This document shows positions 3,481 through 25,254 of a stretch of DNA of 64,000 bases, piece after piece. A program made the position numbers and the translations under genes. This DNA is from Octopus vulgaris. Lineage: Eukaryota. Positions within the stretch are counted from its first letter, which is position 1, and each line of letters begins with the position of its first letter. A model generated the notes under the pieces. The model ran no database searches, had not been told where the DNA came from, and saw nothing but the letters and a program-made list of their open reading frames with translations. The stretch lies in NCBI GenBank assembly GCA_951406725.2, contig OX597831.1, positions 65,596,001-65,660,000 on the forward strand. The letters are read 5' to 3'.

Positions 3481-3613
3481 AAGCTCCTTTATTAAAGAAG
3501 GTTACCAAATAATGAAATGAAATGAAGAGTTCATAGATAAGCATAATGTCTGCCAAGCTAGTTGTTAACATAGGGACCATTCCTTACAAAGGAACGAATA
3601 CTATTTTATATAA

Positions 3614-3806
3614 TACAGTTCTATATTTAAGAGATGAGGAATTATGTACATTATTTACATTTGACGGATATTTGTCCTCATCTTGTTTGATGTTAACAAC
3701 GTTTCGGCTGATATACCCTCCAGTCTTCATCAGGTGTCTTGGGGAAATTTCGAACCTGGGTTCTCATTCCTAAGGTATTTTTCGTTGATGTTGTTGTTGT
3801 CGTTGC

Positions 3807-3874
<68 letters not shown>

Positions 3875-3940
3875 TCACTGCCTGGAATGGAACTCGGAAT
3901 CTTGGGGTTAGTAGCCCACGCTCTTAACCACTACGCCATA
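3614..3940 (-). mobile_element. tRNA-headed short element with internal (AAT)n and a hammerhead motif
   Basis: Box A TGGCGTAGTGG (3928-3938), box B-like GTTCCATTCC (3884-3893), (AAT)n spacer, HHR at 3695-3738, 3' hairpin AGATGAGGA/TCCTCATCT. Confidence 0.7.
3695..3738 (-). ncRNA. Type I minimal hammerhead ribozyme motif
   Basis: GACAC-CUGAUGA-A-GACUG/CAGCC-GAAA-CG-UU; palindromic stem III ACGU; stem I weakened in this copy. Confidence 0.7.
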
Positions 3941-5214
3941 TAACTTCGTAATTTCAATCAGCTAAGTGTCTAGATAGTATGCTAAGATATGCCTCAGGCA
4001 AAATAAAAATACTTAACACAGATGAAATATATGTGCTTTATGTGGTAGAAAGCGAATATCAATTTTTGAAACAAGGTATTAGGGAGCGTTCCCAATGAGT
4101 GAAGTTTTAAGAAAAAAAGAGGCTGGTATACACTACTTTGCGTTCTAAGTGTAAATTCGAATATAGATATTGCCTAAAATCTAACGAAAGTACATTGGAA
4201 TTTCGTTAGAGAAGAGATGTAGTCCAATGCGAGCAAAGTGATCTAATAATATAAAAATTAGTTGTGCTGGATCCCAAACAATTTTTCTGATATCTAGGGC
4301 TATGGCACACCTTTTGACGAATGTTCAGGTAAATGTTACATGTTCAGGATAGACTGGCTAAGAAACTGCTGAATTCAGATTAAGATAATGTTTGCACTTG
4401 TACACACACACGCACACGCACATACACGCTGATATTTTCCTATGCCTGTAATACTTTATAATCATTTTCATGTTTCTACAAAGGAACAAATGTGTGCAAT
4501 ATATGCGCGAGGATCGGCTCCGGTGCGTAGTCATTTGCACGGATTAAAACGAATCCACACGTGTAGTGTACGTGTTCATGTCATCAAAAACAGAACTTCA
4601 GGAAGAGTTAGTTATTAGTCCGTTGTCTTTTGTTTTCTATTTCTCGTTGTCAATGAAGTTTGTTAGAATCAATTACGACGAGAAACAAGTTTTTAAGAAT
4701 TTTCCCCCGAATCCAGCGAATGGATTATAGTTTTCAGTATTGCCATTGTTGTTGTTTCTCAGATAACCATATTTTTTAAAACTGAATTGAGATCCAGCGA
4801 CTAGGAAGGTTATGTAGAACCTCACTTAGCAAAGCATCACTCTTTAAAAATCTCAACTACAAAAATATTACGAAACTCTAACGTTTTTGCCTATAATTTT
4901 CAGAAACAAATCGACCTAGAAATTATGCTAAAAACTGCCGTTCAAACCGAAAAGATCCGATTTATCTGTGCCTATCGTACAAAAAACAAACAAACATATA
5001 GGTTAAATTGATATCACCAATACGTTCACTATGAAGTGGTACGTAATAAATCCTTTACAATACTCCCAAGAATGTACTAGTGATCTTGTCTTAGTAGGCC
5101 GGTTGTGATGTCAGCTGAAGCATTACACAGATACTATTAAGAACTCGAAAGTCATTTGACAAAATGACTTGCTGCCTCTACTGAACGTTCTTGTATTTTC
5201 GTGCCTACACCTAT

Positions 5215-6780: not shown

Positions 6781-6820
<40 letters not shown>
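6315..6820. repeat. Compound (TA)n/(CATA)n/(TG)n microsatellite
   Basis: Directly visible. Confidence 0.95.
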
Positions 6821-6823
<3 letters not shown>

Positions 6824-7898
6824 ATCGTTCCGCCATTGTTGTTTTGGCACGCGCCGGGCACACCGCCGATAAAATTGTTAAGTTGATGAAACTTCCAAAA
6901 GCAACAGTTTATCACGTGTATAAACAATTTAAAGAAGAGGGAAAGGTTGATAGAAAAGTACACAAGACTCGCAGTGACTCCAAGCGCAATCCAAAATTTC
7001 TTGCTGGCCTCAAACGCTCGATTGAAGCCAACCCATCCACGTCCATGTCAACTCTTGCAAAGAAACGCAATGCGTCCCTTTCCCTGGTGTCCAGAGCTGT
7101 GAACAGTAACATTGGCATGACTGGATATGTTCGACGACGCCATCACCTCCTAAGAGCCAAAGTCAAAACAATCAGAGCCGAGAGATGCCCAAAGCTTCTG
7201 TCACTCATCAAGCATCAAGGCGCAGGAAAGACTTTCGCGTTTGTGGACGAAAAGTTCACCGTGGACGAGGTGAATCGCAGAAATTCTCGAGTGATTCCAT
7301 ACAACAGTTCTGACATCCCCACTGAGTTTGAGACTAAGAATCCTGCCTCCGTGATGATATCTGGAACCGTGACGAGTGATAGAAGTGTCATGGATCTACA
7401 CTTCATTGAGTCTGGCTTGAAGATCGGTACAGAGGAATACCCGGACATCCTGCCTGAAGAACTCTCTGTTACCTTCGATGGAGCAAAAGTTTGGGCTGGA
7501 CAAGGTAGTGCTTATCCAGGACCCTGCACCATGTCATGGGTCAAAAGCAACACAGGTGAGGAGGTGCCATTTTTTGTGAGGGTCAACATCTAGCCCAGTA
7601 AGAGCTCAGATCTCACCCTTCTAGATTATATATTTCTTTACTACCCACAAGGGGCTAAACACAGAGGGGACAAACAAGGACAGACATAGGTATTAAGTCG
7701 ATTACATCGATCCCAGTGCGTAACTAGTACTTAATTTATCGACCCCGAAAGGATGAAAGGCAAAGTCGACCTCGGCGGAATTTGAACTCGGAACGTAACG
7801 GCAGACGAAATACGGCTACGCATTTCGCCCGGCGTGCTAACGTTTCTGCCAGCTTACCGCCTTCTAGATTACATATTGGGCGTACTTCAAACAAGGAC
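6820..7898 (+). pseudogene. Tc1/mariner transposase pseudogene, probably DD37D (maT) type, interrupted by a SINE
   Basis: HTH N-terminus, FVDEKFTVD, NRRNSRV, KNPASVM, frameshifted IQDPAPCHGSKATQ and *PSKSSDLTLLDY; continues as LLDYILGVLQ after the SINE. Confidence 0.9.
7629..7861 (-). mobile_element. tRNA-derived SINE family 1
   Basis: Head GGCGGTAAGCTGGCAGAA, box B GTTCAAATTCC; TSD CCTTCTAGATTA at 7617-7628 and 7860-7871. Confidence 0.92.
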
Positions 7899-8994: not shown

Positions 8995-9043
8995 GTCTTA
9001 CAGTTTTTTTCTGGAATATTGTGGATATCCCTTCATCAAAGAC
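8995..9043 (-). ncRNA. Degenerate hammerhead motif
   Basis: GUCU-UUGAUGA-A-GGGAUAU/AUAUUCC-A-GAAA...CUG-UA-AGAC; stems I and II pair, core and stem III mutated. Confidence 0.55.
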
Positions 9044-9571
9044 GATGTGAGATGGTTAAGTAGATATTCAAGTTCGAAATAAGGAATTATTATGGAAAAG
9101 AAGAGATAGTTTATATTATTTATCCTTTCGGTTTTTCATTATATTCCCCGTTAATATAATAATCAAAATAAGTATTAGTTATCCCTATCCTTATTTCTTC
9201 CAATTATCACCCCTTTCCCATTAGGCATTCCCTTGGTACCAACCCTACGCACTTCTTTATGTGGCTCCATTACATTGAAAGTCAAGTAGATTGTTTGTCG
9301 TTAATTGATTTATCACCATTAGCTAGAATACAGTTGACAACTCCCGATGGATTTGATTCTAAATGGCTGAAGACTACATTCTACATAAAGTCTTCTAAAT
9401 GTAAGTCACTAGGTTACCATTCTTTTCCATCTGCTATTCTCCAAATTATAGCAGATGCAACAAGATATGCATTATTTTTTAAACCAATTCTGTCCCAGAT
9501 ATGTCAGTGCCATTATCGATGTGAATATATTAAGGAAATGGTTGTATCCTCCATGTTTGAAATCTGTGCGG

Positions 9572-9654
9572 TCATCTGACGAGAACGGTTTCTTTCAAAT
9601 GACGTAATGTTTTCATTAATCAGTTAAAGGAGTCGCTTGAAACGGCCGTAATGA
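9572..9654 (+). ncRNA. Hammerhead ribozyme, canonical core, long stem II
   Basis: UCAU-CUGACGA-[56-nt stem II GAACGGUUUCUUU...AAAGGAGUCGCUU]-GAAA-CGGCCG-UA-AUGA. Confidence 0.8.
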
Positions 9655-9678
9655 ATTGACACTTGTACATCTTTGTTA

Positions 9679-9753
<75 letters not shown>

Positions 9754-9759
9754 GTATGC

Positions 9760-9817
<58 letters not shown>

Positions 9818-9825
9818 GTATATAT

Positions 9826-10031
9826 AAAGTTAATCCAAACAAGAAAGCACAAAAAAATGCAACAACGCGAGGACGTGGAACAAATATAGTATTATTGGAC
9901 GCTCAGGAAAGAAGGAAAGAAGGAGGGTTTAACGTTTCGAGCGGAGCTCTTCGTCGGAAACATAGGAGAAGGAAAGATCCAGAGAAGGGAAGACAGAGGG
10001 AAAGAAATCGCCAACGGTACACACGCGGTCA
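9826..10031 (-). mobile_element. Short Penelope-like non-coding element carrying an HHR variant at 9927-9961
   Basis: GUUU-CCGACGA-A-GAGC/GCUC-GAAA-CG-UU-AAAC; homologous to 61000-61203; adjacent to (TA)n. Confidence 0.7.
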
Positions 10032-10095
10032 CACACACATACTCACATATTTATTCATATATAATTAGGATAAAGTCATTAATTAATGATTTATC

Positions 10096-10522
10096 GGATC
10101 TTTTCGGTTTGAACGGCAATTTTTTCTAGCGGTGTCATATGAAATTGTCACCCATAATTATGGCCCTAGTATCGATCTATTGCATTTCAATCTGTTTTAG
10201 GGTTAGGGTTAGTTAGGGTTAGGGGTGGGGGATGGGTATCTTTTTTTCTTCACAAATGTAAATAAACCCAATCTGTTTCTTAAACGAGGGACATATTCAT
10301 ACGGCACAGAATGTTTTTTTAACTCAATAGACGTCAGTGATTGGTTGAAATTTCAGAAATTGAAGAAAAAAACAACAAATATCTTACAAACTATAGAATT
10401 TTCTCAATAAAGCCAAGAGAAAAAGATGTTTTATAAACACATTATACCAGTATACGAAGTTTAAAATTGTTTTAGTTACCTAGAAATTATGTTAAAAACT
10501 GCCGTTCAAACCGAAAAGATCC
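10096..10522. mobile_element. MITE with GGATCTTTTCGGTTTGAACGGCA TIRs, 8-bp TSD and internal TTAGGG repeats
   Basis: TIRs at both ends; TSD GATTTATC at 10088-10095 and 10523-10530. Confidence 0.93.
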
Positions 10523-10818
10523 GATTTATCAGTGCCTAGCGTACAAAAAAAATACATATAGGTTAAATGGATATCTAAAGTAAAATTATAAATAATGGCA
10601 CTGGAGGGACAGCAAGCCACTTAAGTTAACACTCCGTTTATCACAAGGCTGTATACAAGGAAAATAGACAAAAAAAAAAAGGATTTATAAAAATATTGTG
10701 GACAACCCTACATCTTAGGATTTCACGGAATGTTACATTGAGTGGTTTGTAGTTGTTTGACGTTTATTTCAAGCATACAGGCGTTGTCACTCCAGCGCCC
10801 TTATTTAAAATTATATAT

Positions 10819-10999
10819 AGGGAGAGTTTACGAAAAAAACAAAAGACGAAGACAGGTGGTGTACAAAACAAACAGATGTATTAGTATAACGCTCAGGAAT
10901 GGAAAAAAAAGTCTTCTACGTTTCGAGCCTACGCTCTTCTACAGAAAGGGACACAGAAAAAACAAGGAGAGAAAAAAATGTGTGTAGTGGCTAACGATC
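10819..10999 (-). mobile_element. Short Penelope-like element with HHR variant at 10913-10948
   Basis: CUUU-CUGUAGA-A-GAGC/GCUC-GAAA-CG-UA-GAAG; near-identical to 21868-22057. Confidence 0.72.
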
Positions 11000-11282
11000 A
11001 TTATATATATAAAATTGTACTTTACACACACACACACGCACGCACATGCACACGCACACACATTCTCACTCACACACACAAAAACGTATCTTTTTTATAA
11101 TATCTATTTTTTAACTTTATGTTTTATAGTCAAAATGACACTGTACCAAATAAGTTATCGTTTCAATAAATAATAAACAAAGTATTAGTAACATAGAGTA
11201 TGTTATTAATGATTCTAAGTATTAAATAATGTAAAGCCCAAATAGCATCACGTGCTCATAACAACAACAGTAATAACTATAA

Positions 11283-12443: not shown

Positions 12444-13590
12444 TTGCCTGTCTTTGTTAAGTTCAAAATGAAAAGTGATACTGATCGAATCTGGCACAAT
12501 TGGATTGAAAAGAATCCCATTTGGTATCCAGATAAAGTTCGGGATGGACGTTCACATGCACTACTGGAATTTCTCGAATCTTGTCAGACAGGCATTAAGG
12601 AAAACCTTAAAACAAGTGGAAAGAGGTCATGGAATAACCTCACAAATTCTCAGCGTTACGCACCGCATCGTCTTGATAATAATGATTCTATTGTTATCAA
12701 AATGGCGGATAAGGGAGGTGCTATTATAATTATGGACAAGAGTTAGTATATTTCGGCTTGTGAAGAAGTTCTAAATGACAAAACTTCATATGAAGAATTA
12801 CCTGTCGATCCAAACCCCAATTACAGAGAGGAACTTGAGAAAATAATTCTAGAAATGGAGGAAAACATTTTTATAAATATGGCTGAATCCAGGATTTTAC
12901 GGTCAGAAGGAAGAGCACCTATATTTTATTGTCTCCCTAAAATACATAAAAAGTTCGAAAAATTCCCCCCACTGTGCCCAATTTCCAGTAGATACAAATG
13001 TTGTACAACCAAAATTTCCGAGTGGCTGGATAGCTTTCTAATCGTAAAAAGTCGTAAAAAGATCGGGATACTTTTGATTTTGTGTCTAAAATCAACAACT
13101 TTTCTAAGTACCAAAGCAATGTCGAAAACTGTTCTTTGGTAACCATGGATGCCTCTTCTCCATATCCTAATACTGACCACGATGAAGGGGTGGAAGTATG
13201 CATGAATGCCTTCGAAAAACGGTCAAACAAAAGTTATTCCATCTAATTTTCTCTGTAAGTTACTGAGATTTGTGTTACTTTCTAACACATTGAAGTTAAA
13301 ACAAAAATCTTACCACCAGACGAGGGGTTGCACCATGGGTAGCCCCCCCCCCATGACAATTAATTTCGCTAATGTCTTCATGATGAAACTCGAGACGCAG
13401 TTACTGAAGACATTCAAATCATAACATGGTCATGAACCAATACTTAATGTTAGTAGTATAATGGTTTCGCCTATACTATATGAAAACTATACTTATTGAC
13501 TCTACTACATCTGAATATATTGAGCGGATACCTGTTGTGACTAAGGTCGATCATAACAAGCCTGTGGAAACGCGCGTAGCGATGCACTAT
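12444..13590 (+). pseudogene. Penelope-like retroelement reverse transcriptase pseudogene, 3'-truncated
   Basis: IVIKMADKGGAIIIMDK, FYCLPKIHK, PLCPISS, LVTMDASSPYPN, YHQTRGCTMGSP; stops and frameshifts; degenerate HHR remnant GAAA-CGCGCG-UA near 13567-13578. Confidence 0.9.
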
Positions 13591-19660: not shown

Positions 19661-20182
19661 TTTTGATCAGTGCTAGTTAGTTCCTCTATGTACCCCTTCA
19701 CCGCTAACACATACCAATTACCACGAACCTATTCAGATTTTCATATACAATTACACATTAAAGTAGAAAGAAGTAAGAAACCATCATCATTATCATAAGC
19801 AACTTCTCATTATTCAGTATTCAAACTGAGGCCCTGTTTGCTACGGTTTGATAATACTGCCAACAGGCATCAAATTAACCGAGGGAAAACACCTCGACGG
19901 AGTGTTGTCCATTCTACGTACACATACGGTAAGGTCTCACTTGTGTATTGTAGTTAATTGAAATACTTTAATTAACTGAATTCATCTAATTAATTAGTAG
20001 ACCAAATCTACCTTCAGGTGTCTTTAAAATCTAAAAACTACAAATAAGGGAAATAACCCTAATACCGCCACGATTGAAATGTTTTGGACAATAAAGTCAA
20101 TGCAGATGTGTTGTCCCCTCCACGCTGATTTGTCCTTAGTGTTTTGTTTAGAATTTAAATATTTAAAGGCGGAATTTTTTTT

Positions 20183-20371
20183 GGCGATCCTTCGGTATAG
20201 GTACACAAGTGACTTTGTTTACATTTCTGAAGATAACAGAAACCCTTTTCTTCCACCTCTAACCCTAACCCTAACACAAACCCTAACCCTAACCCTAGCC
20301 CCCGTATATAAATAAACAACACTTTCTTGAAATGTATCCGGTACTTCCGGTACTTATACCGAAGTTACGCC
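20183..20371. mobile_element. Small MITE with GG-starting imperfect TIRs and internal (CCCTAA)n
   Basis: GGCGATCCTTCGGTATAGGTAC / GTACTTATACCGAAGTTACGCC; T8 on both sides (possible 8-bp TSD). Confidence 0.7.
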
Positions 20372-21069
20372 TTTTTTTTTTTTCATCAACTAATTGTTTG
20401 GATAGTCTCTGTTGAATGACCCTTTCGGTTCACTGTATTACGTATCTGAGACCTTGTCATATTGGTATTCATCGAAGTGCTGCTTGTAATTTTACTTCTG
20501 GCACAGAGTGATTATTTCTATCGGTCACTGTTTACCGCCCACTCAGTTCCTCACAGTATTTGCTATAAACGTGTGCTGCGAGAACACTTTTTAATCATTG
20601 ATCAATAATATTATTCCGTTGCTTTCCTTTTCTCTTCGCATTTACTAGTACTCCTCTAACAAACCATTTAGCTGTCATATAACCTCACCAGTAACACTTT
20701 AACAGAATATTGGTTTCATACACTCGACCAATGTTCTCTTAAAGTGAGACAAGCCATGACATTACGTTGAAAAATCAATAACAATATTTACATATAATTT
20801 GACCTTGCCCTGCGAGCTTTCATAACGTCAGGAGGATTTCCATTTATGCTGCATTTATGCTTCCGTACAAATCTCGCTTTACATTAAATGGTTTAACGGA
20901 CGTGATAATTTTAATCTATATGTTAGATTAAATTTCAGTTTGTTTCTGTCAGGTTTACTGATGATGCGGAATTAAATGTATTGGAATATAAGCTGCATAA
21001 AGTTTTGGTAACTTCCTACTAAGCCCTGTAGGTTATATAACACATTTCAGAGGAGTCGGTAGCAACTGT

Positions 21070-21149
<80 letters not shown>

Positions 21150-21155
<6 letters not shown>

Positions 21156-21349
21156 TGTGTTTGTGTGTCTGTGTTTGTCCCCCTAGCATTGCTTGACAAC
21201 CGATGCTGGTGTGTTTACGTCCCCATAACTTAGCGGTTCGGCAAAAGAGAGACTGATAGAATAAGTCCTGGAGTCGATTTGCTCGACTAAAGGTGGTGCT
21301 CCAGCATGGCCGCAGTCAAATGACTGAAACAAGTAAAAGAGTAAAAGAA
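21150..21349 (+). mobile_element. CORE-type SINE 3' half
   Basis: Matches the 41246 copy; GAGTAAAA tail repeats. Confidence 0.88.
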
Positions 21350-21743
21350 TAGTTAGAATATTTAATTAAATAATAGTTATATATAGTTTATTTATAGCAG
21401 GATTTTATTGAGAAATCTTTTATCTGTAATATAATCGCTTCATTCTTTTTTGTCTTGTGTTGCATTTAACATTTCAGTCATCCTTGGAACAGGTATGTGC
21501 TGAATATGAGTATTAATGTTAGCGGTTAAATAGCAATCATCTATACTCGATTGGCCGGTGTGCTTCCGAGGGGAATATTGAGTTGGCACTATTGTATTAG
21601 ATGTCTGAAGAGTAAGCAGGCGCAGTGAAAAACAGTTTGAAGTTAATATTTATTTCGCGTGGATAGCCCTCTCATTCCACAGACACATACACATACATGC
21701 GAATTCTCAATAAGTTAGCAATATTCAAATACGCCTAGACGTC

Positions 21744-21819
<76 letters not shown>

Positions 21820-21867
21820 GTCTGTCTGTCTGTCTGTCTGTATGTCTTTCTGTCTGTCTGTCTGTCT

Positions 21868-22054
21868 AGGGAGAGTTTACGAAAAAAACAAAAGACGAAG
21901 ACAGGTGGTGTACAAAACAAACAGATGTATTAGTATAACGCTCAGGAATAGAAAAAGTCTTTTACGTTTCGAGCCTACGCTCTTCTACAGAAAGGGACAT
22001 AGAAAAAACAAGGAGAGAAACAAGGAGAGAAAAAAATGTGTGAAGTGGCTAACG

Positions 22055-22057
<3 letters not shown>
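21868..22057 (-). mobile_element. Short Penelope-like element with HHR variant at 21959-21994, inside (TCTA)n
   Basis: CUUU-CUGUAGA-A-GAGC/GCUC-GAAA-CG-UA-AAAG; near-identical to 10819-10999. Confidence 0.75.
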
Positions 22058-22143
<86 letters not shown>

Positions 22144-22562
22144 CCTACATACCTATAAACCTACCTACCTACCTATCAACTCCCGCTCCTTTTCTGTCTT
22201 TATACCAAACTATCTACGTCCCCCTATATAAGTAGGTACCTATCTAAATACTTATCTATATCCTACCTACATCTTACACGATAATATCCATCCCCATGCA
22301 TTTTCAGTACCAACTGTTACCAACATTTGTGATACTTAACCAGTCTTTTAAAAATTTTTTATCTTCCACTTGTTTCAGTCATTGGACTGCGGCCATACTG
22401 GGGCACCGCCTCGAAGAATTTTCATAGTCGAATGAATCGATCCTGCTACTCATTTTTCTATTACTTTTTTTAAAGACTGGTACCTATTCTATCGGTCTTT
22501 TTTGCCGAAGCGTTAACACACCAACCCCAGTTGTCAAGCGGTGATGGGGACAAACACTGACA

Positions 22563-22642
<80 letters not shown>

Positions 22643-22697
22643 CAAGCACGCACACATACATTCAATAATATCAATGCCAAATAATGATAAGGCATAC

Positions 22698-22896
22698 GCG
22701 AACTTTAGGCTAGCTAAAGTATGTTTGTGACATATTTCAACTTGTAAAGGCAAACTGACGGCAGTTACTGTGGTGAAAAAGATTCTTTTACACCTTTTAC
22801 CACGAGAGACAAACTTTTTCTCCATAGTAACTGCTGTGAATATGCTTTTGAAGTTGAAATGTGTCACAAACATATTCTAACTAGCCTAAAGTTTGC
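22698..22896. mobile_element. Palindromic (fold-back) MITE
   Basis: ~85-bp imperfect inverted arms AACTTTAGGCTAG...GCAGTTACTGTGG / CCATAGTAACTGC...CTAGCCTAAAGTT. Confidence 0.82.
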
Positions 22897-22924
22897 TGAG
22901 CCATGTAAAGACACACGTGCTTTT

Positions 22925-23100
22925 CTCGAACTATTCTTTTCTTTCCCGGTGGACACGTTTTCCTCTTTTCTCTTTCTGACGAAGAACCTTCTCCGAAGCG
23001 TCACACATTAAGCTTTCTCTGAGCGGCAAAATTATCGATTTACTGTGTACGTCCTTTTCACTTTTCTTGTTTTTCCTAATTTTGTTTTTATTTTTGATTT
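22925..23100 (+). mobile_element. Diverged HHR-bearing element (9826 family)
   Basis: CUGACGA-AGAACCUUCUCC-GAAGCGUC; downstream CTGAGCG...ACGTCC as in the 9826 family. Confidence 0.5.
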
Positions 23101-23257
23101 GCCTACACTTAGACACACACAAACACACATGCAAACACGACGAGTTTCTTTCAGTTTCCGTCTATTAAATCCACGGGGCTATACCAGAAGACACTTGCCG
23201 AAGGTGCCACACAGTGAAACTGAACCTGGGACCATGTGGTTAGGAAGCAAGCTTCTT

Positions 23258-25254
23258 TATTTCATTACATTTGCCATAAAGGCACAATACAGATGAAGCT
23301 TTGCGGGCTGGACACAGACACAATGATGATGACGGAATGAAAAAAGAGATGGTTGGTGGGGGAAGCAGCCAACGCTGATTGTTACTTCCCGATAACATTG
23401 TTCTTGCTTTTAGAAACACAAATGAGGTGTTGAACCCCTTACAACAATTACAAATTGAGTCGCTGAGCCGCTTACCAATCAAAAAAAGTTAAGAAAATAT
23501 TCAACTTGAGGCGCTAAAGCTCTCACGAATCTCCAAGTTCGAATCGAGGCACTAAGACCTCTTACTCTGCCTCCCCGATTAAGTCTCTTGCCCCCCGCAG
23601 GCAAGCCTGAAGTCGCAAGCCGGGGTCCCATGAAAGATAATTATATTCTTCCTTAGTAAAGGAATCCATTACCCTATAGAAATAATTTTCCTCTATGACC
23701 TCCGCAGACACCTGCGGAGGCCAATCCGGGCTATCAATGCAGGTCAGGACCGCCTTTTCCCGACCTTCAAGATTCCTCACAAAGTTCCCTTAAGAAAGAA
23801 GATCACAAATTCCTCATTTATTACACTGGGAGGGGCCACAGTTTCCTCCGTCGGTGGCACAATCCCACCGACGAGGTTTCAGGACATGTCGGCAGTGTAC
23901 TGCTAACCGCCGGCATTGTCCAATTCTTTTTCTTCTTTTTTCTTGTCTTTGATACGGGAGGGGGGTAGTTCCTTCGCTTTAACCGGATGATCATCGCTCC
24001 CTCCCGCAGCTTTAGGGTCCTTCGGTGAGCAACCATTGTTGCCCGCCTTCTTCCTTTTTTCCCCTTTTCCCGGGGAGGTTTCTACCTCCTCGACTACCTC
24101 CATCTCTCCCTCCGGAGGAGGAGAGGGCTCTTCCACAACCAACTGTTCCAGGTCCTGGGGACAGTTCTTTTTGATGTGGCCCGGTTCCAGGCACAGGTGA
24201 CATTTGGTGGTGGTGGTAGGGGGCGTCCCTCAAGAATCATCGGGTACCTACAACCGGCCATTTTCAAAAAATCAGATTTTTGACTGATTGGGTCCACAGG
24301 GTCAAAACAACTTTTGACCCAACCCAATCAGCCGCAGGCAAAAATTTAACATTAAGCAGCTTGGATCCGCTGCTATCCAGACCCCGGCGGATAGTGTTCT
24401 CTATCCACTCGGGTTCTATCCCGGGTGGTAACTCGCAGACCCAAGCTCTTGTCAACTTCTTCCTACCATACGTGGGAAGAAACAAAATCTCTTTGCTGGT
24501 TCGCAAATTTGCGAGCCTCCTCAGGGGTGTCAAATAACAACCACACCGTTGCATATTTGACCGCCCTGGAGATTAATTTAATAGTTGGCAAATACTCTGC
24601 CAACTCTTTTTCAATTTGAGTCTTTTGAAAGAGGGCGATGGTGTCGAGCGACTTTGAGTAAGTCCTTAACATCACCGTCCTCTCTTCAAAGTCTTTCATC
24701 CACTGTTTGGGCGGAACAATCTCCCACTCCATCGCAGTGTTGTTTGTCTTTTTTGCCATGTTTTTTTTTTGGAAAAAAGTTCACAGTATTAAAAAAAACC
24801 AAAAATACAGAAAGGAAGGAAGAAGACAAGAAACAGCTCCAAAACACAGCAAACTATTCTGGTTGTCTTGGTACTCCTGGCCAACTCGGTAATCCTCTTG
24901 GTAAGGACACAAAACAGTTACACAACAATTTCACCAAAAATTGGTAAAAAATAAGCACAATTATAGTGGGGGGGGGGGTACACCCCCAAAACACACTTCT
25001 CACCGCTAAGTGAGACTTTAAGCACAACTACAGGCAGACAATCTGCCAGGAACTCAGTGGATATTTCTTGCTCGACAAAAATAAATAAACACAAGCAATA
25101 CACCGCCACTGAATCCCGAACCCCGAAACAAATGTCTTACCTGGTAGTTGTGCTTCACTTGTTCAATAATTCACGACGTTGGTGTACAGCGACGTGACCC
25201 CTAGCAGTGCAAAGAAAACAGTGACCAACGCATGCGCATGAAGCAGGCTTCTTG
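23258..25254 (-). mobile_element. ORF1-only (HAL1-like) Tx1/L1-type retroelement
   Basis: 15-bp TSD GGAAGCAAGCTTCTT (23243-23257, 25255-25269); no RT or EN within boundaries; 3' end forms AATAAA with the TSD. Confidence 0.75.
23562..24759 (-). pseudogene. Gag-like ORF1 with CCHC zinc knuckle (frameshifted)
   Basis: Overlapping ORFs join into MAKKTNN...ELPPGIEPEWI...LEGRP..KCHLCLEPGHIKKNCP (CX2CX4HX4C) plus a charged low-complexity tail. Confidence 0.85.

Follow-up and report, generated by a model that had tools for sequence, protein, structure and literature searches.

What is a repeat that combines a tRNA-like head, carrying the two internal boxes of a Pol III promoter, with a hammerhead ribozyme, and what mobilizes it? 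Such a repeat lies on the minus strand in a 64,000-nt stretch of the Octopus vulgaris genome (contig OX597831.1, positions 65,596,001 to 65,660,000; hereafter the window). An earlier note, made from the sequence alone, took it for a SINE/retrozyme hybrid, a separate non-autonomous element that borrows the machinery of Penelope-like elements (PLEs). We find instead that the repeat is almost certainly a copy of the pLTR of a PLE. Judged by its sequence, the parent is a coding PLE of the Penelope/Poseidon type, of which the window holds the pLTR and about 53 codons.

The order of parts given in the earlier note for the minus strand (a head with boxes A and B, (AAT)n, a minimal hammerhead and a 9-bp hairpin) is present from 3941 to 3610, and the features are collected in Table 1. 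The hairpin is not terminal, as had been stated, because the copy extends about 20 nt beyond it. We assigned boxes A and B by the box consensus of type-2 Pol III promoters. The window copy was compared with a column majority taken over 31 heads and 40 tails. This majority sequence has exact boxes A and B, stems I and II of 5 bp each and the AACGUU palindrome, and forms a minimal type-I hammerhead (CUGANGA/GAAA core, stems I and II, palindromic stem III), whereas the window copy does not. The window copy departs from the majority at 3918, 3889 (box B), 3785, 3724 (stem II) and 3690, and has lost 2 nt from the 3' strand of stem I, near 3698, which breaks its ORF frame. The damage to stem I (the 2-nt deletion) and to box B (G>C at 3889) had been recognized before; the break in stem II by G>A at 3724 had been missed. 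The majority sequence restores the pairing of stem I, and also that of stem II. Given the damage to box B, stem I and stem II relative to the majority, we regard the window copy as a decayed fossil, and no clear target-site duplication was found for it (3610..3941). The Rfam hammerhead search suggested in the earlier note gave no match at E<=10, and folding of the 9-bp hairpin showed a modest gain over shuffled sequences (z -1.4 to -1.9).

Table 1. Features of the repeat copy in the window (positions count from the first letter of the window)
Feature	Position	Strand	Basis
Entire copy: pLTR with the N-terminal stub of the ORF, from a Poseidon-type PLE; 3' end of the "long" form	3610..3941	-	
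tRNA-like head, positions 5-75 of the 75-nt head	3871..3941	-	sequence and column majority
Box A, type-2 Pol III internal promoter, intact	3928..3938	-	sequence and column majority
Box B (here carrying G>C at 3889)	3885..3893	-	compared with column majority
(AAT)n/(AAC)n spacer, length variable	3788..3870	-	
First ~53 codons of the PLE ORF, ATG at 3767-3765	3610..3767	-	
Minimal type-I hammerhead within the coding sequence	3694..3738	-	
Hammerhead stem I, 5' strand	3738-3734	-	
Hammerhead core CUGAUGA	3733-3727	-	
Hammerhead stem II, two arms	3725-3721 / 3710-3706	-	
GAAACGUU, 3' of stem II in the hammerhead (GAAA plus AACGUU palindrome)	3705-3698	-	
AACGUU palindrome	3703-3698	-	
9-bp stem-loop, arms 3683-3675 and 3640-3632	3632..3683	-	
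~30-nt PLE "tail" between the two 3'-end classes, with two putative RT start sites	3610..3640	-	

The hammerhead pattern matches twice in the window, one of the two matches being the copy at 3610..3941. Elsewhere in the window, positions 12618-13430 (+) hold a disrupted RT fragment from a different PLE family, which has 25-27% identity to each of the two PLE families studied here and ends at an (ATCT)n array, and an open frame at 6820-7593 (+) presumably resembles a decayed Tc1/mariner-type transposase.

Genome-wide, exact matches numbered 3,470 for a 24-mer from the hammerhead, 4,056 for a motif from the head and 9,064 for the 20-mer that follows the spacer, and the reversed-pattern control gave none in each case. 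Corrected for a non-CpG divergence of ~4-5%, these counts correspond to ~20,000-24,000 hammerhead-side arms and 9,000-11,000 heads. The claim that head and hammerhead form one family was borne out from both sides. Among the first 30 head-motif matches on contig C1 (hereafter the head-picked copies), 27 have the hammerhead part downstream. Among the first 30 hammerhead matches, 14 have the head in cis, with 10 starting at the head, 2 cut inside it and 2 linked to the ORF; the other 16 are cut at the 5' side, 8 stopping in the spacer and 8 further 3'. Co-occurrence at this level excludes a chance juxtaposition. Independent insertions into one microsatellite are ruled out by the genome-wide linkage of head to hammerhead and of ORF to head. 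The sequence was also present in 20 sequencing runs under six organism labels, and reads of a second organism cover the ORF-head junction. On record, none of the runs listed as containing it is an RNA run, which says nothing about expression. The spacer and a 9-nt repeat near the 3' end often carry later repeat insertions (e.g. L053, L057 and L071); the 9-nt repeat varies by whole units, which keeps the reading frame.

Sequence flanking the copies leads to the coding element. In tblastn searches of the flanks, PLE RT sequence adjoins some copies and runs straight into the head. When loci were picked by the last 700 nt of the ORF, 26 of 30 had head sequence directly after the ORF, four of these 26, all on contig C31, resembling one duplicated insertion. 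Near-full-length copies run from the hammerhead region into the 5' part of the ORF, a junction with 81 exact matches only. The full unit thus reads, in order, the ORF stop codon, 29 nt, head, (AAT)n, ATG, hammerhead, stem-loop and the rest of the ORF; the ATG lies 34 nt upstream of CUGAUGA, and the pLTR hammerhead overlaps the ORF start.

The column majority of 77 segments is a single open frame of 835 codons. The longest natural frame, of 465 aa, matches Pfam RVT_1 with 39.7 bits, above the cut-off, and has 992 relatives at E<=1e-20; its identity is 40% to Anolis sagrei protein P0091, over 99% of the 465 aa, and ~30% to the local Neptune-type ORF. The Pfam GIY-YIG model gave no match to the family's own ORF fragments. 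At its C-terminus, this ORF aligns with the relative P0079 (38%, E 6e-53), and the alignment spans the Pfam GIY-YIG domain of P0079. A Zn finger within the RT-EN linker, which marks Neptune and Nematis (bioRxiv 10.1101/2021.04.23.441226), is absent from the 835-codon frame and present in the 781-aa family of the same genome. The assignment to the Penelope/Poseidon type is based on the RT match, the GIY-YIG alignment and the linker without a Zn finger. No intact ORF occurred among 73 ORF-bearing loci, and for this reason the family may be inactive.

Other candidate partners were rejected. The young 781-aa Neptune-type family shares neither the head nor the hammerhead region, and the other GIY-YIG elements from a Pfam search of the genome are likewise without head or hammerhead region. 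The Neptune-type family (L151-L166, e.g. L153:787-5450), located on contigs C16, C17, C6, C2, C4, C5 and C7, is very young and has many intact ORFs. Upstream there is a further open frame, at most 479 aa long, with no Pfam match; the family also has a 3' UTR of ~95-nt tandem repeats and a degenerate hammerhead-like motif, and its copies end in (AT)n.

The 3' ends of the copies were surveyed in 130 arms from 109 loci, chosen regardless of 3' end. Arms ended at positions 140-151 of the hammerhead-side region in 67 and at 170-182 in 51 of the 130, which places 118 ends in two clusters ~30 nt apart, and 36 of 44 inverted pairs consist of one long and one short arm. The same two 3' ends were seen under another organism label. 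The short end coincides with the foot of the 3' arm of the 9-bp hairpin (the equivalent of 3641), 129 nt past the ATG, and the long end lies ~28 nt beyond it. These two clusters and the pairing of long with short arms are the "tail" and the inverted arm of PLEs. For Anolis PAc, Frangieh et al. showed that the protein initiates reverse transcription at two neighbouring sites of a stem-loop within the ORF start, that the tail spans the interval from one site to the other and that the main substrate is uncleaved RNA (PMC11167929). Direct repeats of at least 8 nt were found at the ends of 2 of 8 simple copies, one of them a tandem artefact, and of 2 of 8 controls; no poly(A) tail was present in the column majority of 40 tails. 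The integration marks agree with mobilization by PLE proteins, as proposed in the earlier note. The separate SINE/retrozyme that would borrow these proteins is not borne out, because the unit is the PLE's own pLTR with the start of its ORF and because short and ORF-linked copies are alike.

Two unusual sets of ends were also seen. L304, L305 and L322 break at one point 231 nt past the tail in the ORF, and two of them join a head; the common break possibly reflects a third RT start site or a deleted master. L116 and L117 (C1:11300254-11300611) form a tail-to-tail pair in which ~30 nt of flank are mirrored beyond both ends, a geometry unlike that of the usual head-to-head pair.

The 5' ends are concentrated at the head. 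Exact counts of 20-base words are 4,056 at head position +3, 1,013 at -38 and 572 at -396, a 4-fold drop over the 41 nt before the head compared with only 1.8-fold over the next 358 nt. The start lies between -7 and +2 in 24 of the 30 head-picked copies and at -26 in one; five run into the ORF, three of which share a variant. Of the junctions listed, eight join ORF-start sequence to a further piece: four, leading to a new head, lie exactly at -6, one at about the head start and three further in, and the four at -6 carry 1-4 extra letters, mostly A. We infer that at the -6 junctions synthesis ran off a genuine RNA 5' end, located 13 nt before box A, and then switched template. Two copies, L311 and L312, begin at the head and continue beyond the tail for 340 and 53 nt of ORF, respectively. 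Of seven near-full-length copies with a visible upstream pLTR, none extends back to the head. Three RNA-seq runs of a second organism, aligned to L191, had nearly equal mate directions and no peaks of starts or ends, and 67-71% of their reads continue into unlike sequence, so that read-through is inseparable in these data. The same reads have an excess of A>G/T>C differences, which would need matched DNA to be read as editing.

A tRNA-like promoter ahead of the hammerhead makes it likely that the element uses Pol III to spawn SINE-like copies of its end. Specifically, the sequences suggest that short copies probably arise from Pol III transcripts begun at the head and reverse-transcribed by the element's own protein. 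Pol III would initiate at a purine ~6 nt before the head and, without TTTT in its path, could read through the ORF. The RT/GIY-YIG protein would nick AT-rich DNA and start the cDNA 129 or ~157 nt into the ORF, a two-site start as shown in vitro for Anolis PAc. A start in the pLTR nearest the RNA 5' end would lead to run-off at the head and to SINE-like copies of 300-400 nt, and a start in the downstream pLTR would give ORF-bearing, 5'-truncated copies. The cDNA end could then snap back on itself at the short palindrome by the head or switch to a second RNA, producing inverted and partial-tandem insertions. The usual template would be uncleaved RNA, with the hammerhead cutting only as a dimer or with the help of protein. 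Solo copies with intact boxes may in turn be re-transcribed and serve as secondary sources.

Boxes A and B start at head positions 8 and 53, the spacing of a tRNA, and a loose box A/B pattern arises in 0.2% of shuffles. The Rfam tRNA model scored one copy at 14.4 bits (E=5; cut-off 29) and gave no match in a second copy, and with ARAGORN neither the window nor either of two well-preserved copies yielded a tRNA. In 1.3 Mb of sequence, the best non-self matches of the head, each of them weak (E 0.016-2.6), were tRNA-type heads of other repeats and a tRNA-Arg gene, all aligned colinearly. Of the earlier description of the head as tRNA-like, the boxes stand; since neither Rfam nor ARAGORN makes a call, we use the term for the two boxes and the colinearity with tRNA-type heads. 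A tRNA-Arg(CCG) gene called by ARAGORN (L027:896-970) lies ~600 nt from a family copy.

One alternative treats the head as an inert passenger, with long Pol II or read-through RNAs as the sole templates; the stop at the head would then be due to snap-back of the cDNA or to an RNA cut at the tRNA-like segment. Even with no promoter present, cDNA synthesis on a longer RNA could stop at a palindrome by the head, and a short palindrome does lie exactly in the stop zone, with an inverted piece just upstream in 20 of the 30 head-picked copies. The head also does not fold as a cloverleaf, and Penelope of D. virilis has a LINE-like internal promoter (PMC2377424). However, copies joined to flanking DNA or to another RNA stop at the same place, with extra letters of the run-off type. 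Moreover, both boxes are exact in the majority sequence although its acceptor and T stems are without pairing, and an inert head leaves the deficit of TTTT runs, described below, unexplained. We therefore consider an inert head rather improbable.

Another alternative has most short copies descend from independent non-autonomous masters, in the form of a PLE-dependent tRNA SINE that split off from the pLTR and is now a lineage of its own. The ~4:1 excess of head over upstream sequence and the state of the boxes (of 117 copies, 94 have an intact box A and 86 an intact box B) speak for such masters, as does L042:836-1883, where 240-nt units of the short copy stand in tandem and have private changes in common. 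In addition, the spacer has a median length of 50 nt in 89 head-start copies and of 26 nt in 28 ORF-linked copies (P 0.001), which hints at sources other than the coding element. On the other hand, the head belongs to the coding element itself, and the head-start RNAs behind L311 and L312 read into its ORF. No diagnostic non-CpG site separates the 28 ORF-linked from the 89 head-start copies, one CpG site differs between them (P 0.0009), and the divergence of the two classes is similar (4.7% in ORF-linked and 4.0% in head-start copies, P 0.09). Without a diagnostic difference, a separate SINE lineage is not needed, and we regard independent masters as an unlikely main source.

Amplification as a non-LTR retrozyme, in which hammerhead-cut tandem transcripts yield circular RNA for rolling-circle reverse transcription, is very improbable. 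It draws on the single L042 array, on the AACGUU palindrome that permits a dimer ribozyme and on a weak excess of internal 5' ends directly behind the predicted cut, where 12 of 92 fall and 6.7 would be expected (P 0.035, with the window set post hoc). But several of those 12 ends look like small deletions, the copies are dispersed monomers or inverted pairs with one clear array among 90 mapped loci, they terminate at the head and at the two PLE 3' sites rather than at the cut site, and the start and joints of the array itself lie away from that site. There was no joint at the cut site among the RNA-seq joints listed, which come from a library unsuited to circles. Most copies retain sequence upstream of the cut site, which argues that self-cleavage does not shape the inserted copies.

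If short copies do begin as Pol III transcripts at the head, the same polymerase might read the whole coding element; from the sequence we consider this possible but doubtful. The sense strand of the 2,548-nt majority sequence contains no TTTT run, compared with 2.9-5.0 expected: shuffles gave 4.4 (P 0.008), 3.2 (P 0.027) and 5.0 (P 0.005), and 2.9 were expected with protein and codon usage fixed (P 0.028-0.035), in a borderline test that was chosen post hoc, after the head had been seen. Neptune-type ORFs of the same genome hold 8-9 such runs. The density is 0.5 per kb in 43 natural segments of the family compared with 3.8 per kb in relatives, and 19 of 20 long frames of distant PLEs, taken from metagenome contigs and several of them from one family, hold at least one run (observed/expected 1.14). 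GGGG runs are also absent from the majority sequence (expected 1.05), and one headless relative is likewise without TTTT. For these reasons, and because the test was post hoc, the TTTT deficit is suggestive only. Since translation of an uncapped Pol III RNA is unexplained, the protein could have a Pol II source.

A box A/B pattern after the ORF was absent in 27 of 28 related PLE loci scanned. At L333, whose element is ~35% identical, a loose box A/B pattern lies between the ORF stop and the hammerhead, with a chance rate of 0.0008 per such interval. The segment is not homologous to the family head, and neither Rfam nor ARAGORN calls a tRNA in it; the locus has two TTTT runs, both near the ORF start. 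This segment may represent an independent promoter capture. L333:2757-3020, on metagenome contig JGI1357J11328_10009043, belongs to a distant tandem PLE with a 918-aa open frame and an RVT_1 match, and its ORF start carries a histone-3'-like stem-loop (Rfam 15.9 bits, below the cut-off). In its broadest form, the proposal is that an autonomous PLE, read end to end by Pol III from a captured tRNA-type promoter and with its 2.5-kb ORF purged of terminators, sheds SINE-like copies of its 5' end via internal RT initiation, and that, with the independent capture in L333, this is a recurrent birth route of Sm-alpha-like hammerhead repeats. We put this forward tentatively, as a scenario that could well be wrong.

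Several known systems share parts of this organization. PLE hammerheads, with many solo copies, have been described (PMC4209133). [quoted passage not shown] Unlike in PAc-type elements, the pLTR contains tRNA-like boxes A and B, a sharp 5' start is found there and the ORF is free of TTTT; the only PLE promoter described in the sources consulted is LINE-like and TATA-less (PMC2377424). In Schistosoma, the repeats Sm-alpha and Sj-alpha are SINE-like, with a Pol III promoter and a hammerhead (PMC6765202, PMC2770079), and resemble the octopus repeat in having a tRNA-related Pol III promoter followed by a hammerhead and in their high copy number. In the portions of these accounts that we draw on, they are described as non-coding, often tandem and released by cleavage, with no autonomous partner named, whereas the octopus repeat is part of a coding PLE and has a minimal PLE hammerhead and PLE ends.

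The TRIMp3 elements Cassandra, Helenus and Ajax likewise have a small-RNA-derived Pol III promoter in a terminal repeat, possibly acquired via SINE insertion (PMC10886601). They are non-autonomous LTR elements with PBS/PPT and target-site duplications, whereas here the coding element itself bears the promoter-like segment; autonomous TRIMp3 partners have been argued to need Pol II, given the weak processivity of Pol III (PMC10886601). Animal non-LTR retrozymes derived from pLTRs have been described (bioRxiv 10.64898/2026.07.22.740005; PMC7761336) and are, like the short copies, non-coding hammerhead repeats related to PLE pLTRs. By definition they form tandem arrays in which every unit has a hammerhead, and pass through circular RNA intermediates, in contrast to the mostly dispersed octopus copies with 5' ends defined by the head, and the main text of the former source does not contain the terms "tRNA", "Pol III" or "promoter". 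With tRNA-derived SINEs (SINE2) the short copies share a head with boxes A and B, a length of 300-400 nt, a number of ~10^4 and the absence of internal TTTT. They differ in that the 3' part is a PLE pLTR with an ORF stub and not a LINE tail, in the apparent lack of a 3' simple-repeat tail, in that no consistent target-site duplication was seen among the 8 simple copies, in the common inverted arms and in that no separate lineage was detected.

The new feature is that a head with boxes A and B lies within the pLTR of a coding PLE. A tRNA-type promoter in such a position was not found in the literature, as far as the sources consulted extend, and an annotation of octopus repeats makes no mention of ribozymes in the portion available (PMC13282606). 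The family may already be filed in Repbase, Dfam or SINEBase under some name. Autonomous retrotransposons are assumed to depend on Pol II, and a Pol III head is taken as the mark of a non-autonomous element; boxes A and B in the pLTR of a coding PLE blur this line. It also offers a direct route from a PLE to a SINE-like family for which a separate fusion event is not required. With ~10^4 copies that record both ends of the RNA, the family constitutes a large natural read-out of the PLE mechanism. Finally, the finding makes it testable whether repeats of the Sm-alpha type are orphaned pLTRs of such elements.
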